A DNA stretch of 64,000 nt from a virus. Its lineage: Duplodnaviria > Caudoviricetes. The stretch covers positions 1-64,000 of the IMG/VR virus record IMGVR_UViG_3300028797_000141. One strand, given 5' to 3'. The notes under the pieces are model-generated. The model was given only the letters and a program-made list of their open reading frames with translations. It had not been told where the DNA came from and searched no databases. This document shows positions 97 to 63,709 of this stretch, piece by piece (position 1 is the first letter of the stretch; each line of letters begins with the position of its first letter). Made by a program: the position numbers and the translations under genes.

Positions 97-138
97 TTCC
101 CCTGTAGAAAGAATTGATGATTCTTCTCTATGGGGGAA
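97..138. repeat. Inverted pair of the dispersed CCCCCGTAG motif (hairpin 1)
   Basis: ttcccctgtagaaagaat-tgatg-attcttctctatgggggaa. Confidence 0.85.
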
Positions 139-541
139 CTTAAATAAACTTAATAAAGATGAAACTAAAACATAAAATCTAAAAATACTAGTACAAGAAA
201 TAATAACTGTTTTAATAGTTTCTAGATAAATATTAAAAATAAGTGTTATAGATTGTATCAATTCCTAGTAATATTAGTCGAAGACTATGGTTGAATTGAA
301 CATAGTAAAACTTAATATAAAGAGAACGGTGAGAGGGCACTTTGTATTATAAATAGTTAGTTTAAGTAATGGCTTTCAAACTATTCATATAAGAAATCTA
401 GATTGAGGAGAGAACGTTCTTTGATAGTTTTCGTAGTTAAACTCCTCGTTAAAATAAAAATAACAGTTGAAAATATACTACTAATATCAAACCTTTTGAT
501 TGTTTTCATATAATGCACTAAAATGATATTAGTAGTTTTTT

Positions 542-1150
542 GCCATCGTGTTGGAATTGGTAGACAAGACGGACTTAATAAAAATTTGAGTGCTATGGCG
601 AGAAATCCCATAGTAGAAGCAGGCTAATTCGGTGAAAGTCCTTAATGGTTTAGGAAGTAATGTATGGATAGGAATAAGATTACACCATACCCACTAAACA
701 ATAACGTGGTAGGATAATACCGAGCTAAATTGAATAAAAGGTAGTGAAGACTAGGCAACTACTGATTATATTATAGTATTAATAGAATATACATTATATA
801 TTATAATCGATTTTTATTCATAAATGTGTAGAGCACATATACCTGCAACCTAAGTTAAAATTGTTGTTTTAATTAGTTTTGACATACGATAATATTAAAA
901 TAACACTTATAAGAATTTCAATATGGTTATAATATGTGCCAGACTACAACAAACAACACAAAACCATCCAGTAAGGACAGGCTGGCGTGTTATGAACCTA
1001 ACATCTTATGGTCAACCACATAGACTATGTATAGTGTAAAGTGGAAAGCGGGTGCCTGTATGAGTGAAAATGTTTGGCTATGGCAACATAGTGTAGTAAG
1101 AAAATCCGTTGCTCATTGAGAGCGTGTGGGTTCAAATCCCACCGATGGTA
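542..1150 (+). tRNA. trnL: tRNA-Leu(UAA), split by a group I intron (exons 542-576 and 1101-1150)
   Basis: Joining gccatcgtgttggaattggtagacaagacggactt to aaaatccgttgctcattgagagcgtgtgggttcaaatcccaccgatggta gives a full cloverleaf. Acceptor gccatcg/cgatggt plus discriminator A, anticodon stem acgga/tccgt, loop CTTAAAA (anticodon TAA), long variable arm, GTTCAAATCC T-loop. No encoded CCA. Confidence 0.93.
577..1100 (+). mobile_element. Group I self-splicing intron (IC3/trnL-like), ORF-less, 524 nt
   Basis: Inserted after U34 and ends in G (1100). P1 is exon ACUU with GAGU (U.G at the splice site). P2 ctatgg/ccatag; P3 gcagg/cctgc; P4 ttcggtg/taccgag; P5 tcct/agga; P6a tgaataaaa/ttttattca; P7 GAGCACA/TGTGCC; P8 aacc/ggtt; P9.0 actac/gtagt; terminal ctatg-GCAA-catag hairpin. 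Confidence 0.92.
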
Positions 1151-1179
1151 CTAATTATTAACTTTAAATAAATATTGAT

Positions 1180-1401
1180 ATGAATTTACTAATAGGTGAT
1201 GTAATAAACATCAACGGAACATTAAGTTGTGTAATTGCACAACCTCAAGACTTACAATATGTAGTAATGAGTGAAGAGCGTCTTTTATACATAACTGTAG
1301 AAGATGAAAACATCAGTGTAACTAGCGAAGTAGGTCTTGAATATATCAAAGATAATTTAGCTGCATTAACAGCAGTTGTTGTAGGTCATATAGACTTATA
1401 A
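1180..1401 (+). CDS. Hypothetical protein, 73 aa
   Basis: ORF with an A/T-rich leader between the two tRNAs; protein-like composition. Confidence 0.65.
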   Translation: MNLLIGDVININGTLSCVIAQPQDLQYVVMSEERLLYITVEDENISVTSEVGLEYIKDNLAALTAVVVGHIDL

Positions 1402-1530
1402 TAAAAATTATTTTATTACGTTTAATTGGTTGGTAAAAAAAAACTTACACTTACTACCGTAGTAGCCCATAGAATTTTAGTAAGTGTTGTATCATTGAAG
1501 TTTCCTTGAAGGTTTTATAAATGATATAAT

Positions 1531-1601
1531 TGTTCTATAGTATAATGGTAGTACACCAGATTTTGGTTCTGATAGTCGTGGTTCGACTCCACGTAGAACA
1601 A
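1531..1601 (+). tRNA. trnQ: tRNA-Gln(UUG)
   Basis: Acceptor tgttcta/tagaaca, D-arm tagtataatggtagta, anticodon loop TTTTGGT (TTG), T-arm cgtgg-ttcgact-ccacg. Confidence 0.9.
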
Positions 1602-1709
1602 CTAATAGTATAAGAAGTGCCACTCTATAAAATTTTGTTTATAATAGATAAGTCCTACAAGCTCTTCTTATACTATTTTTTATAATAAACTAATAGTGAA
1701 ACAAAAAAT

Positions 1710-61207: not shown

Positions 61208-62111
61208 TTCTTATAAATTTAGTATATAACATTTTATTTACAGAAACACACATATTAAGTTTAGTTCTAATATCTAAATCTAAATCACATATTTTGTTTA
61301 TATCATTATTACATTCTTCTTTTAAATCTTCATTTGTTTTACCTCTTAAATTAGGACTTCTATAATCAGAAGTAACAAATTTCATATTAGAACCATGAGG
61401 AAGAGTACATCTAAGAAGAGGAATTTCATAAGCGTATTCATTTTTTACAAATACTCTAGCATCAACTCCATTATATTCTATATTATTTTGTTTACACCAT
61501 TCAGCTTCTTCTTTTTTATATATTCTTTTACCCTCTGCAAGTAATTTTTCTTTATTAGCTTTTGTTGCTTTAAAGTCTATAATTTTCTTTTTTGATTTAT
61601 TTATCTTACATCTGTTTATACATATCCAACCTATATTTCCACTAAAAGCATAACCTTGACCTTCTAATATCATTTTACGTTGAACTTCTGTATAATATTT
61701 CTTTAAAATATTAAGATATTCCATAACACTTAAATCTAACATTTTATCACACAGAAGTATAAGATTTTGTATATCTACTATATCCTTTTGTAATTTAGCA
61801 AGTTTAAATAAATCAAAATAATTAGTAACTAATTTAAAATTATTATGTCTATTTGCGAATATATTTTTAGCTACTTTTAAAAATGTACCATTTTTATATT
61901 TGTTTTCATTAAACTCTTCATATTTAGTTAAATCACATGAATAAGCATCTGGATTATTTTTAAAAGTTTCATCAACTAAAATATATTGTACTCTTTCTTT
62001 TTCTTTAATTTCACTTAATTTTTCTATAGCGTCTAATCTCTTTTGAGTATAAGTATCTTTCATACTTTTATAATATACTCTAAACCCTGTAGGTGTTTCT
62101 TTAACTGCCAT
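61158..62111 (-). CDS. crAss IHF/HU-like DNA-binding protein
   Basis: ILKKYYTEVQRKMILEGQGYAFSGNIGWICINR; basic; lies between ring genes. Confidence 0.6.
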   Translation of the reverse strand: MAVKETPTGFRVYYKSMKDTYTQKRLDAIEKLSEIKEKERVQYILVDETFKNNPDAYSCDLTKYEEFNENKYKNGTFLKVAKNIFANRHNNFKLVTNYFDLFKLAKLQKDIVDIQNLILLCDKMLDLSVMEYLNILKKYYTEVQRKMILEGQGYAFSGNIGWICINRCKINKSKKKIIDFKATKANKEKLLAEGKRIYKKEEAEWCKQNNIEYNGVDARVFVKNEYAYEIPLLRCTLPHGSNMKFVTSDYRSPNLRGKTNEDLKEECNNDINKICDLDLDIRTKLNMCVSVNKMLYTKFIRNENQESSVSKKVNRKD

Positions 62112-62112
62112 A

Positions 62113-62787
62113 CTATTCTACATTAAATTTAGACTTTTCAGATATTTCGTTAGTTTCTCTAACATTATTTATTAAATCTCTCTTAAATAATATCTCTTTA
62201 ATAGCACCTATCATATCTTCTGGTAACAAATATTCATTCTCATCAAATTCTACTTCTAATTCAGTTGTTACACCATTTTCAATATCTATAGTATTTGGAT
62301 GCTCAAAAGCACTTTCTACAACTATATAATTATGTTCTATAGGTTTATTACCTGAAGGAAATATATAAATATAACCATTTATATAATCATAAGCATTAGT
62401 CTTACACATTCCTGGAAGACTACCTACAAATCTAGCAGTTGTTTCTTTAACAAAAGGAATTTCTCTATTTGTTTTAAAACCTACTGTGCTAACTCTATCA
62501 AAAGGAAGATTGTTTACAAGTCTAACAGGTCTAGGAACAGGATGTAAAGTTCTTTTAACTTTAACTGGAGTTTCTATTTCTAATTCTCCATCATTTACAG
62601 TAGTTAATTCTACTTTAAATCTTTGTGTTAAACCTTTATCAACGTAATTATGATTTTCATAACTACGCCTTATAAGTTCATTTCTTGTAGTAATTATAGC
62701 CAATTTGATAGTTTCCCTAACAGCTTCATTGTTAGGTCTTCCTATTGTATGAGCTATTTCAGAAACTAGTTGATTTATAGTTGCCAT
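62113..62787 (-). CDS. Tail ring protein
   Basis: MATINQLVSEI, YDYINGYIY, VESAFEHP, YLLPEDM. Confidence 0.75.
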   Translation of the reverse strand: MATINQLVSEIAHTIGRPNNEAVRETIKLAIITTRNELIRRSYENHNYVDKGLTQRFKVELTTVNDGELEIETPVKVKRTLHPVPRPVRLVNNLPFDRVSTVGFKTNREIPFVKETTARFVGSLPGMCKTNAYDYINGYIYIFPSGNKPIEHNYIVVESAFEHPNTIDIENGVTTELEVEFDENEYLLPEDMIGAIKEILFKRDLINNVRETNEISEKSKFNVE

Positions 62788-62809
62788 AACACTATTGTTT
62801 TTATTTTGG

Positions 62810-62817
62810 CAAATATA
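62810..62817 (-). promoter_or_regulatory. Bacteroidota sigma -7 element for the tail/cargo/RNAP operon
   Basis: Minus strand cgTATATTTGcc, 22 nt upstream of the ring gene ATG. Confidence 0.7.
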
Positions 62818-62906
62818 CGAAAATTATCTTGCAGTAATAAAATAATAATAAAATATTTAAAATATATAATAAATTATATATTTATAAATATATAATTTAT
62901 AATAAA

Positions 62907-63326
62907 TTATGAATATGTTAAATATTTTTTAATAATTTGACTTGACACAAAACCGATAGTATAAGCGTTACTTTCATCGTCATTTTCAACATTGTAATAT
63001 TTAACTATACTATCTTTTATATGTTCTGATTCATGTATTATACTATTTAACATATCTACTTCACTTTTATGTCTTCTAAAACATACTATGCTATATTTTT
63101 CTTCAATATTACTTATAGTAACTGCTTTTATATGTTTATTTTTAAATCTTAAAATAATATTTTTTATATAGTTATTAACTACATTATATTTTTTAAGTTC
63201 TATACTTAAATAAGAAAGAGAGTTATAATCTATGTTAAAATAAATTATAACTCTCCATTTATTATTCACATTTAATACATCTTTAATCATAAAAACTTTT
63301 CCCAAGGAATTGCTATACCCATCCAC
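62907..63326 (-). CDS. Small HExxH (zincin-like) protein
   Basis: NSIIHESEH...ESNAY. Confidence 0.6.
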   Translation of the reverse strand: MDGYSNSLGKVFMIKDVLNVNNKWRVIIYFNIDYNSLSYLSIELKKYNVVNNYIKNIILRFKNKHIKAVTISNIEEKYSIVCFRRHKSEVDMLNSIIHESEHIKDSIVKYYNVENDDESNAYTIGFVSSQIIKKYLTYS

Positions 63327-63709
63327 TTCATATCAGCTATCCAACGATTAAATACAAGACCATCACAACCATCAGGGTCATCTAATGTATCTTTAATATA
63401 TTTAGCTAAATGTTTTTCATCAGGAACACTGCTTTTATAATAATCAAACATACACATATTTGCTACATAAGTAATATCATCAAGTTGGGCATACCTTACT
63501 TCAATATTATGACGTTTAAGTATGGACTCAACCTCCCCCGTAGAAAGAATTGTGATGTTCTCTTTATCACCTTGTTCATTAGTCTTATACATTTTACTAA
63601 TTGCAAACTTACAACATTTACTATTAAAATGTGCACCATTATGAGATAGATAAATAGCTAATGCTTCAGGCATAACTTCATAAGCTGTAAAGTTGTCTTG
63701 TCTATGCAT
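63287..63709 (-). CDS. DUF7841-like Bacteroidota phage protein (likely start MHRQ at 63709)
   Basis: YLSHNGAHFNSKCCKFAISKM, YVANM...DY..SS, YIKDTLDDPDG, FNRWIADM. Confidence 0.7.
   Translation of the reverse strand: MHRQDNFTAYEVMPEALAIYLSHNGAHFNSKCCKFAISKMYKTNEQGDKENITILSTGEVESILKRHNIEVRYAQLDDITYVANMCMFDYYKSSVPDEKHLAKYIKDTLDDPDGCDGLVFNRWIADMKWMGIAIPWEKFL
63534..63550 (+). repeat. Dispersed motif, consensus copy in CDS
   Basis: tcccccgtagaaagaat, encodes ILSTGE. Confidence 0.85.

Follow-up and report, generated by a model that had tools for sequence, protein, structure and literature searches.

What keeps a GC-rich word of about 20 bases in the genome of a crAss-like gut phage, where about 25 copies run through unrelated genes? 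The stretch of DNA analyzed (the window; 64,000 nucleotides, positions 1 to 64,000 of the IMG/VR record IMGVR_UViG_3300028797_000141) is part of a genome of 89,943 bp, and the initial annotation had listed 19 copies in it. All of these coordinates (19/19) bear the word, scoring 16–31 bits with a 22-nt weight matrix (PWM) made from the phage's own genome. The word reads approximately AsyT-CCCC-YR-TA-R-A-RRA, that is, a C run, a pyrimidine-purine step, TA, and a purine run in which positions +3 to +7 hold no pyrimidine. It is asymmetric, not palindromic, and its information profile sums to well above 20 bits over roughly 20 positions, the similarity among copies stopping within about 22 nt. The exact core CCCCCGTA occurs nine times in the window versus 0.05 expected from dinucleotide shuffles (shuffle maximum 1), the real G+C content being 27% instead of the 25% that had been assumed, and TCCCCCGTAG is the top-enriched 10-mer of the entire genome. 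No published description of the word was found in the literature, in line with the earlier statement that no function was known for it.

Across the whole genome, 14 copies lie on the + strand and 13 on the − strand, with a similar balance in nine relatives, and 18 of the 27 are located in genes. The 11 listed copies inside open reading frames (ORFs) comprise five in sense and six in antisense orientation, and the peptides named for them (TPIE, YGG, FTGD, SPV, and STGE) were confirmed. The SNF2-type ATPase gene carries a sense copy through T-P-I-E (8247–8268, +) at a gene position common to 7/7 genomes compared, and the primase gene an antisense copy through Y-G-G (12849–12870, −), 821 nt into the gene in 7/7 genomes compared. 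The ORF of 4814 aa contains CGCCCGTAA in sense (29557–29578, −; 23.9 bits), an antisense copy through F-T-G-D (31864–31885, +; 22.8 bits), a sense copy through S-P-V (36944–36965, −; 21.6 bits), and an antisense copy through Y-G-G called by the PWM at a position common to four genomes (38481–38502, +). The ORF of 2987 aa holds a sense copy through S-P-I-E, likewise called by the PWM and common in position to five genomes (44990–45011, −), and two antisense copies, one through S-T-G-E (47329–47350, +; 30.3 bits) and one reading CCCCCTGTAG (50660–50681, +; 19.7 bits). Toward the end of the window, a tail ring protein 1-like gene (Pfam CrAss_Ring_1, a weak match) has a sense copy through S-P-V (60835–60856, −; 26.9 bits), and a DUF7841 gene has the exact consensus in antisense, through S-T-G-E (63531–63552, +; 30.8 bits). 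A likely additional copy absent from the initial list, CCTCCTGTAG, lies in sense in an ORF of 1457 aa (57778–57799, −; 20.2 bits) and closes a 13-kb gap on the − strand. Weak further copies were called by the PWM at 12695(+), 25929(−), and 63720(−), and good ones beyond the window at 82144(+), 82320(−), and 86264(+).

The proposal that selection acts on the DNA and not on the proteins is borne out by several lines of evidence. When genes were shuffled in a manner that retains every protein and the codon usage of each gene, in-gene matches of at least 18 bits numbered 18 versus 0.99 ± 0.94 (maximum 4 in 200 shuffles), and those of at least 22 bits nine versus 0.11 expected. The copies are indeed spelled with rare codons, GGG accounting for 1.9% of Gly, CCC and CCG for 4.0% and 3.6% of Pro, and ACG for 2.0% of Thr, and they fall in variable protein stretches. 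At the primase copy, the surrounding residues vary while Y-G-G is always spelled TAY-GGG/AGG-GGR, and a change of the DNA core from CG to TG or CA accompanies a residue change from G to R. The DUF932 gene illustrates a moved site: relatives encode its Y-G-G as TAC GGG GGA, which forms the motif, whereas this phage keeps Y-G-G as TAT GGT GGT without the motif and has a copy 80 nt further, in the spacer. Identity at third codon positions over six shared sites is 0.83 in the core versus 0.54 in the flanks. Since the copies use rare codons, both orientations, variable protein stretches, and positions that are either shared or moved, selection acts on the DNA.

Regularity is found on each strand separately. 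Each strand carries about one copy per 6–7 kb, far more regularly than expected by chance: the coefficient of variation of the gaps is 0.25–0.58 per strand in seven genomes versus about 0.9 for random placement, with P ≤ 0.006 in 12 of 14 strand sets. The pooled sites of both strands are less regular (0.66–0.90); for the prototype crAssphage, the values are 0.31 and 0.43 per strand and 0.66 for all sites pooled. Copies on opposite strands tend to lie close together, with 26 pairs within 300 bp versus 8.2 expected. The spacing is thus regular per strand, which points to strand-specific reading. In crAssphage, the copies are divided into 11 sense, 11 antisense, and nine intergenic, and this near-equal use speaks against a signal acting in RNA or protein and shows that placement is independent of the direction of transcription. 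Loading of the virion RNA polymerase and staged ejection, both put forward in the initial annotation, would be candidate roles; with sense and antisense copies equal in number and found throughout the genome, a role in transcription is not suggested.

All ten Intestiviridae tested carry a version of the word with the core CCCC-YR-TA common to all, and relatives, among them the prototype crAssphage, have variants of their own, the core 9-mer occurring 18–28 times per 90 kb versus 0–2 for a reversed control. Two sites are common to 7/7 genomes and one to six, while most others are lineage-specific; the shared in-gene copies are in frame in conserved genes of genomes with about 70% nucleotide identity. 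Because few sites are shared while the density is kept, it is coverage that is maintained rather than fixed places; sites turn over, and lineage "dialects" exist. Outside this family, crAss001 (Steigviridae), a Bacteroides phage, has a different word, CTCCAGAAG, with similar properties (13 sense, 12 antisense, four intergenic). No regularly spaced word was seen in phi14:2 and four other Crassvirales, in one of which a word is enriched but irregular in spacing.

The word is very probably a phage-private, strand-specific, cis-acting DNA signal. Of the initial reading, selection at the DNA level and a genome-wide recognition signal are supported, while a host Chi site, a parS/matS-like site, and an IHF-like binder are not. 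Selection would hold about one copy per 6–7 kb on each strand, leaving no long stretch of either strand without a copy, and copies would persist where the cost to proteins is lowest, between genes or in variable loops, by way of rare codons. The reader would most likely be a phage-encoded enzyme that works on one strand or in one direction at a time during phage DNA replication or recombination. We tentatively favor the possibility that such an enzyme makes a strand end at the word, in the strand that it marks, for example by site-specific nicking or by initiating an RNA primer; both would offer a 3' end to the phage polymerase. The layout of the word, with a C run as anchor, an easily opened YR-TA step, and a purine run, would suit a site of cleavage or initiation. 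There is a precedent in T5, phiKMV-like, and tf/Rembedalsseter-like phages, in which conserved words in and between genes mark single-strand nicks (PMC11780129). However, those known motifs are confined to one strand and clustered (PMC11780129), whereas the present word is used equally and evenly on both, and nicking at the intergenic pairs would place breaks in opposite strands 24–60 bp apart, a risk to the genome. No consistent asymmetry in base composition was found upstream or downstream of the oriented sites. Most proteins of the replication module had no match in Pfam or PHROG, and no nickase or other reader was recognized among the phage proteins. The primase family (phrog_12622) is also encoded by phi14:2, which lacks the word, so word and primase do not consistently occur together.

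The word could instead be a private Chi-like signal, read in one orientation from any break by a phage-encoded tracking motor, such as a helicase-nuclease or a recombination/repair machine, that would alter its behavior there, for example by halting degradation or loading an annealing protein. Phage DNA would then be labeled "self" by a word that host DNA lacks. Coverage of both orientations, regularity per strand, the lack of a link to transcription, and absence from the host are all predicted by this explanation and all seen, and the gene content includes an SF1 RecD/Dda/Pif1-like helicase and, judging from annotated relatives, a RecT recombinase as well as a PD-(D/E)XK nuclease. We nevertheless consider it rather unlikely. 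Known Chi sites are only 5–8 nt long and are read by the host, no RecB/AddA-type helicase-nuclease was recognized in the phage by sequence, and a Sipho_Gp157/Gam-like protein would provide another way of protecting ends.

A further alternative, built on the lead idea of the initial annotation, is that these are duplex sites bound without regard to orientation by a protein that organizes or packages the DNA, as in parS/matS-like segregation, capsid spooling, or control of ejection. A long, specific, phage-private word with a regular density conserved across the family is what such a protein would need, and a copy lies within 450 bp of an end in three of five contigs that are linear in IMG/VR (this phage, G001, and G005), although this is not significant (estimated P ~0.09). 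Such sites are improbable here, as the regularity resides in each strand and not in the pooled sites, the clustering of opposite-strand copies would be wasteful for an orientation-blind reader, and the word is not palindromic. The supposed IHF-like gene at 61158–62111 has no Pfam match, and a six-frame search of the genome revealed no HU/IHF family gene (PF00216).

A third explanation is an element acting in RNA as a terminator, a transcript-stabilizing hairpin, or a processing site. It draws on the intergenic DNA, where opposite-strand copies often pair as hairpins: four such pairs lie 10–65 nt past stop codons of + strand genes and fold strongly as RNA (−19.6 to −29.6 kcal/mol, z −5.6 to −7.5). 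Pair 1 (95–116, +, 28.2 bits; 119–140, −, 25.6 bits), the left arm of which lies within the ~166 bp by which the contig ends overlap, folds with −26.4 kcal/mol (z −6.6) and stays paired through G-U wobbles in the sense transcript. Pair 2 lies with its left arm (3913–3934, +, 24.4 bits) 30 nt downstream of the SF1 helicase stop codon and has a weaker right arm with four C (3938–3959, −, 16.2 bits; −19.6 kcal/mol, z −5.6), while both arms of pair 3 are of the variant CGCCCGTAG (16081–16102, +, 17.5 bits; 16120–16141, −, 22.4 bits; −29.6 kcal/mol, z −7.5). The arms of pair 4 (23411–23432, −, 26.9 bits; 23470–23491, +, 29.4 bits) are directed away from one another around a 41-nt loop (z −6.0); in relatives, this region has its copy about 80 nt upstream, within the DUF932 gene. 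A copy within the ring protein gene (60835–60856) also folds on itself (z −3.5). However, two thirds of the copies are single and in genes, sense and antisense alike, the one at 12866, a typical single copy, shows no folding (z 0.24), and termination at a sense copy would interrupt the 4814-aa gene. Clear hairpin-plus-T-run terminators at 11012–11040 and 11979–12010 are without the word, and a terminator consensus scan called these two but not the intergenic pairs. An RNA element is very improbable as the general explanation; under the favored strand-end reading, the hairpins arising from + and − copies in one intergenic gap could be incidental or could have an additional role in the transcript.

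It is extremely unlikely that the phage has borrowed a host-read signal, either a Bacteroidales Chi site or a DNA-uptake word. The CCCC-YR-TA core shared by all ten Intestiviridae, three of which have a named host and infect Bacteroides, would be in keeping with such a signal. Yet crAss001, also a Bacteroides phage, has its different word, and the 9-mer core CCCCCGTAG occurs only 2–22 times per genome of 4.2–6.3 Mb versus 12–36 for the reversed control in five Bacteroidales genomes (Bacteroides, Phocaeicola, and Segatella). With no enrichment of the core in these genomes, the word is private to the phages rather than a Chi or uptake signal of the host. Finally, an origin as a small mobile element or repeat (MITE, REP/REPIN-like), or as an artefact of chance or codon usage, has a next to negligible probability: inverted intergenic pairs and GTAG do recall REP doublets, but the similarity is gone beyond about 22 nt, in-frame copies occupy the same positions of conserved genes at about 70% nucleotide identity, there are no target duplications, an apparent "190-bp convergent pair" proved to be mostly one orthologous locus, and the codon-preserving null is exceeded 18-fold.

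Several known systems can be compared with the word. Promoters of the T7/SP6 type are intergenic and co-oriented with genes, unlike the crAssphage copies, which lie mostly in genes; the CCCTATAGAAGA variants presumably resemble the SP6 promoter core. Intrinsic terminators combine a stable hairpin with a downstream T run where genes end; the four intergenic pairs fold strongly, and the terminator scan called two word-free sites and not the pairs. REP/BIME/REPIN sequences are likewise short, GC-rich, GTAG-containing, and often inverted doublets after genes, but they are strictly extragenic, palindromic, and spread by RAYT transposases, whereas the crAss word is a non-palindromic unit at orthologous positions. 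Sites of the parS/matS type are mostly palindromes concentrated in a single region of the chromosome, in contrast to an asymmetric word found genome-wide. The ssiA/ssiB sites of RSF1010 with RepB' and the G4-type complementary-strand origins are strand-specific start signals, one per strand, served by the element's own enzyme, a private primase; they are, however, hairpins of 40–100 nt used once or twice at an origin, while single copies of the crAss word do not fold and about 13 copies lie on each strand.

Chi, read by the translocating helicase-nucleases RecBCD/AddAB, the activity of which changes on recognition, is also an orientation-dependent word to be met within a few kb of any break, a logic that explains why both orientations are covered. 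It differs in being specified by the host, hugely over-represented in the host chromosome, and biased toward one replication strand. The DUS/USS of Neisseria and Pasteurellaceae mark "own" DNA, are equal on both strands and evenly spread, lie within genes in tolerant protein segments, and form hairpins as inverted pairs after genes. The crAss word shares the strand parity, the even spread, the in-gene placement in tolerant segments, and the inverted pairs, and would likewise mark "own" DNA; DUS/USS, however, number hundreds to thousands in genomes of naturally competent cells with a DNA-uptake machine, the receptor of which binds them, while the crAss word belongs to a lytic-type phage of 90 kb for which no uptake step is known, is regular per strand, and is not enriched in Bacteroidales chromosomes.

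The nick-associated motifs of T5, phiKMV-like, and tf phages are likewise group-private, conserved words of 9–20 nt with about 10–30 copies per genome, located in and between genes without regard to frame and kept among relatives with little nucleotide similarity, and the crAss word is conserved among related phages in the same manner, inside and outside genes and in any frame. The word of the tf, LUZ24-like, and Rembedalsseter phages is WACTRTGAC, and one nick-associated motif has 13/13 copies on one strand (PMC11780129). Those motifs mark nicks, whereas nicks at the crAss word are hypothetical; and while those motifs cluster toward one part of the genome, the crAss word is regular on each strand.

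A GC-rich DNA word of about 20 nt, roughly AsyT-CCCC-YR-TA-R-A-RRA, is dispersed over both strands of this phage genome. In the window, CCCCCGTA occurs nine times against 0.05 expected, the 17-mer of the initial annotation has eight matches with three or fewer mismatches (0.05 expected), and TCCCCCGTAG ranks first in enrichment among the 10-mers of the genome. A 22-nt weight matrix was built by iteration and, being trained on these sites, gives scores that lean its way; it recovered all 19 copies previously listed by eye, a likely added copy at 57778 (−), and, outside the window, three good copies at 82144 (+), 82320 (−), and 86264 (+). 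Among 204 sites pooled from ten genomes, the conserved stretch extends from −10 to +11 nt around a central T and reads A-[G/C]-C-T, CCCC, Y, R, T, A, R, A, and then purines. No G occurs in the seven positions preceding the YR step, no pyrimidine occurs from +3 to +7, and the variable positions differ by transitions only, with CG changing to TG, CA, or TA. The AsCT flank is weak in this genome, and the structural-gene region has weak copies only.

By nucleotide and protein similarity, the phage is assigned to the crAss-like phages of the family Intestiviridae, its nearest record being Wotdevirus murinus MH552500, which is about 70% identical in nucleotides across the replication genes. The window covers the first 64 kb of a contig of 90,109 bp (27% G+C), which comprises 89,943 unique bases and about 166 bp of terminal overlap. 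The contig end (G000:C1:89944–90109, G000 being the full genome of this phage) repeats window positions 1–166 with one T difference in a T run, which is why IMG/VR calls the contig linear. This terminal repeat, either a true repeat or an assembly overlap, includes the first of the hairpin-forming pairs of the word. The plus-strand genes, for replication and nucleotide metabolism, start at about 86.6 kb, cross the origin, and end at 24.9 kb; the minus-strand genes, for structural and giant virion proteins, extend from 86 kb back to 25.1 kb. Where the two blocks converge lies a gene for a 757-aa LysM-domain protein (25174–27447, −). A tRNA-Gln gene with anticodon UUG (1531–1602, +) is the sole Rfam or ARAGORN match in the window.

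The codon-preserving comparison that the initial annotation had proposed was run by shuffling synonymous codons within each gene, leaving proteins and per-gene codon usage unchanged, and the in-gene count far exceeds this null. Matches of at least 18 bits number 18 in genes against 0.99 ± 0.94 after shuffling (maximum 4 in 200), and matches of at least 22 bits number nine against 0.11. The plain pattern CCCCYRTAR occurs 18 times in the genome against 7.4 in the shuffles, which leave intergenic copies in place. The codons that spell the word in genes are the rarest of the genome, sense copies encoding S/T-P-V/I-E and antisense copies Y-G-G or S/F-T-G-E/D.

The earlier suggestion that selection acts on the DNA rather than on the protein is supported by this null and by the codon comparison in two genes. 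All seven related genomes carry the primase copy at the same place, 821 nt into the gene, in a loop of variable residues with conserved blocks on either side. Its Y-G-G is spelled TAY-GGG/AGG-GGR every time, and in the two genomes with the core CCCCTATAG or CCCCTGTAG the residue changes from G to R, so that the word is retained in the DNA and the protein gives way. In the DUF932 gene of four relatives, Y-G-G is written TAC GGG GGA, which is the motif; in this phage, it is written TAT GGT GGT, which is not, and a copy stands 80 nt downstream in the spacer. Reduced synonymous variation in orthologues, another expectation of the initial annotation, was found at six shared coding sites, where third-position identity is 0.83 in the 12-nt core against 0.54 in the flanks, a figure that is supporting only, these sites having been selected for having the word. 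Pooling every genome, whether or not it has the motif, diluted the synonymous signal to nothing, and more weight is therefore given to the individual sites described above.

Six related genomes, five IMG/VR contigs and MH552500, were loaded whole, and their sites were placed on this genome via protein alignments. CCCCYRTAR occurs 18–28 times per relative against 0–2 for the reversed control. Two sites, in the genes for an SNF2-type ATPase and the primase, are common to 7/7 genomes, and one, at a small gene that directly precedes the terminase gene, to 6/7; several are common to two to five genomes, and the majority are lineage-specific. The gene for a 4814-aa protein carries three to five copies per genome, mostly at different positions. 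Density is thus retained while positions turn over, which suggests that coverage is what matters and not the individual places. A convergent pair about 190 bp apart (G000:C1:82144–82341, outside the window) brackets the small conserved gene next to the terminase gene, one copy lying in the coding sequence and the other directly after the stop codon, as in at least five related genomes; the ORF called there in this analysis (81891–82247) is probably wrong. A class of 190-bp convergent pairs acting as mini-elements or wrapping units was considered and rejected, because five of its nine cases are one orthologous locus.

The copies are spaced regularly when each strand is taken separately. Across 14 strand sets, the coefficient of variation of the gaps is 0.25–0.58 against about 0.9 by chance, with P ≤ 0.006 in 12 of the 14 and largest gaps mostly of 9–14 kb. 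In the prototype crAssphage, Carjivirus communis, the coefficient is 0.31 and 0.43 on the two strands and 0.66 for all sites together. Strands alternate 140 times in the pooled data against 95 ± 6.7 for shuffled labels, an excess that is expected anyway because two regular series interleave. Opposite-strand copies within 300 bp of each other number 26 against 8.2 expected, and all four close pairs in the window are intergenic. Nine of the 27 matrix sites are intergenic, though intergenic DNA makes up 7% of the genome. The simplest reading is that spacers are the cheapest place for copies, so that plus and minus copies end up together.

A version of the word was found in all ten Intestiviridae tested (this phage, the six relatives, and three named phages). 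It reads CCCCGT[AG]GAGG in Carjivirus communis (31 sites), CCCCC[GA]TAA in crAss002 (19 sites), and CCCCTGTA[AG] in Rudgehvirus jaberico (21 sites). The cultured phage crAss001 (MH675552, Steigviridae) lacks the Intestiviridae word and has its own dispersed word, CTCCAGAAG, with 29 copies over the two strands, of which 13 are sense, 12 antisense, and four intergenic, against 7.9 in a codon-preserving null that includes the four intergenic copies left in place. Its spacing is regular on the plus strand, with a coefficient of variation of 0.46 that no random draw reached, and less clearly so on the minus strand (0.61, P = 0.08). The two words have a common skeleton, CTCC...AGAAG. The Suoliviridae genome cr55_1 (NC_055869) has 31 copies of CCARAGTAA, 15 of them sense and 14 antisense, whereas codon-preserving shuffling leaves 5.8; their spacing is not regular. 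No comparable word was found in phi14:2, in cr111_1 (Steigviridae), or in cr273_1, cr130_1, and cr118_1 (Suoliviridae). The ORF calls in the five cr-numbered genomes assume the standard genetic code.

The word is a phage-private, strand-specific DNA signal, selected for coverage on each strand and independent of transcription. Searches of open-access papers and preprints for the word, for promoters and motifs of crAss-like phages, and for the crAss001 word returned no description, in keeping with the earlier remark that no function had been described. The contributions of the present analysis are a codon-preserving null for the genome, the comparison of Y-G-G codons with and without the motif, the host-genome counts, the contrast between per-strand and all-site spacing, and the separate word of crAss001. 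No viruses of the human gut are more abundant than the crAss-like phages, and to our knowledge almost nothing is known of their DNA replication, recombination, and packaging. Since about 25–30 copies per genome are kept despite rare codons and amino-acid changes in essential genes, the word must serve a central DNA transaction, to which it offers a direct handle. It is also a family-level signature for recognizing these phages in metagenomes, and care is needed not to erase it when they are recoded or engineered. Because the cultured phages crAss002, with the Intestiviridae type, and crAss001 both carry words, the question is testable now.

Two kinds of process could read DNA in this way. One comprises enzymes that act on one strand (a nickase, for example, or a primase or loader working on single-stranded template); the other comprises motors that move along the duplex and may arrive from either side, as with Chi. 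The first kind is favored, the word then being the place where a strand end is made, as a nick or a primer. The main rival is a private Chi-like control signal read by the second kind, which is possible but rather improbable. Orientation-blind organizing sites are less likely: such a reader would favor even spacing of all sites and gain nothing from pairs, so the strands or orientations must each need their own series. A role as RNA elements, also less likely, draws on the intergenic pairs, which lie 10–65 nt past the stop codons of plus-strand genes, fold at −19.6 to −29.6 kcal/mol (z −5.6 to −7.5), and may serve transcripts too. Against it, a consensus terminator scan did not call these pairs, plain terminators lack the word, no folding was found for single in-gene copies, and sense and antisense copies are equal in number. 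The plain terminators are two hairpins with T runs at 11012–11040 and 11979–12010 (+), after genes ending at 10994 and 11951. A hairpin within the single word was also rejected, as the possible pairing register varies among copies and the typical copy is unfolded. Host signals, mobile elements, and artefacts are likewise less likely, and the Chi-like signal of the initial annotation fails in its host-read form, a host Chi or uptake signal being rejected because the 9-mer core does not outnumber its reversed control in any of the five Bacteroidales genomes counted (Bacteroides xylanisolvens, B. stercorirosoris, Bacteroides sp. f07, Phocaeicola vulgatus, and Segatella copri).

Nor is the word a described promoter: in phi14:2, the early transcripts of the virion RNA polymerase are reported to have no common motif, and the middle and late promoters to be of host type. 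The replication module encodes PolB, an SF1 helicase, the SNF2-type ATPase, RecT, SSB, the primase (phrog_12622), a ligase, and several unnamed ORFs; most of its proteins get no name from Pfam or PHROGs, and homology names no reader. Primase presence does not track the word, as the same family occurs in phi14:2, which has none; this speaks neither for nor against the primase as the reader. The ORF at 61158–62111 (−), earlier called IHF-like, has no Pfam match, and PF00216 (HU/IHF) is absent from the genome; its neighbors are tail ring proteins, CrAss_Ring_2 (62113–62787, strong) and CrAss_Ring_1 (60482–61207, weak). The SF1 helicase (2396–3883, +) is of the RecD/Dda/Pif1 type (AAA_30, UvrD_C_2), and its best solved relative is chain 9kwf_B, deposited as a "putative deoxyribonuclease". 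A protein encoded at 21435–22142 (+) matches Sipho_Gp157 (38 bits, above cut-off) and weakly Mu Gam, and may protect DNA ends against host nucleases.

That a single-strand-acting enzyme makes a strand end at the word is therefore proposed tentatively, as a reading with somewhat less than an even chance. It is favored because, among known phage words, only those that mark nicks combine such properties and because the layout, with a C run as anchor, a YR-TA step that opens easily, and a purine run, would suit an incision or start site. It is held loosely because of the primase family mismatch, the small effects in base-composition asymmetry around oriented sites, which change sign with window size and leave no replication footprint, and the arrangement of the known nick words. 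A broader version, in which phage enzymes would punctuate both strands of Crassvirales genomes, that of the most abundant human gut phage among them, with strand ends about every 6 kb, using different words per family such as CTCCAGAAG, is doubtful; if true, it would be a genome architecture or replication mode undescribed for any phage and spanning families. The nick-marking words of phages with localized single-strand interruptions are private to a group, conserved in relatives, located inside genes, and indifferent to frame and gene direction (PMC11780129). They lie on one strand and are clustered (PMC11780129), whereas the present word occupies both strands and is regular on each. It belongs, with nick motifs, Chi, and uptake sequences, among the dispersed, oriented recognition words.
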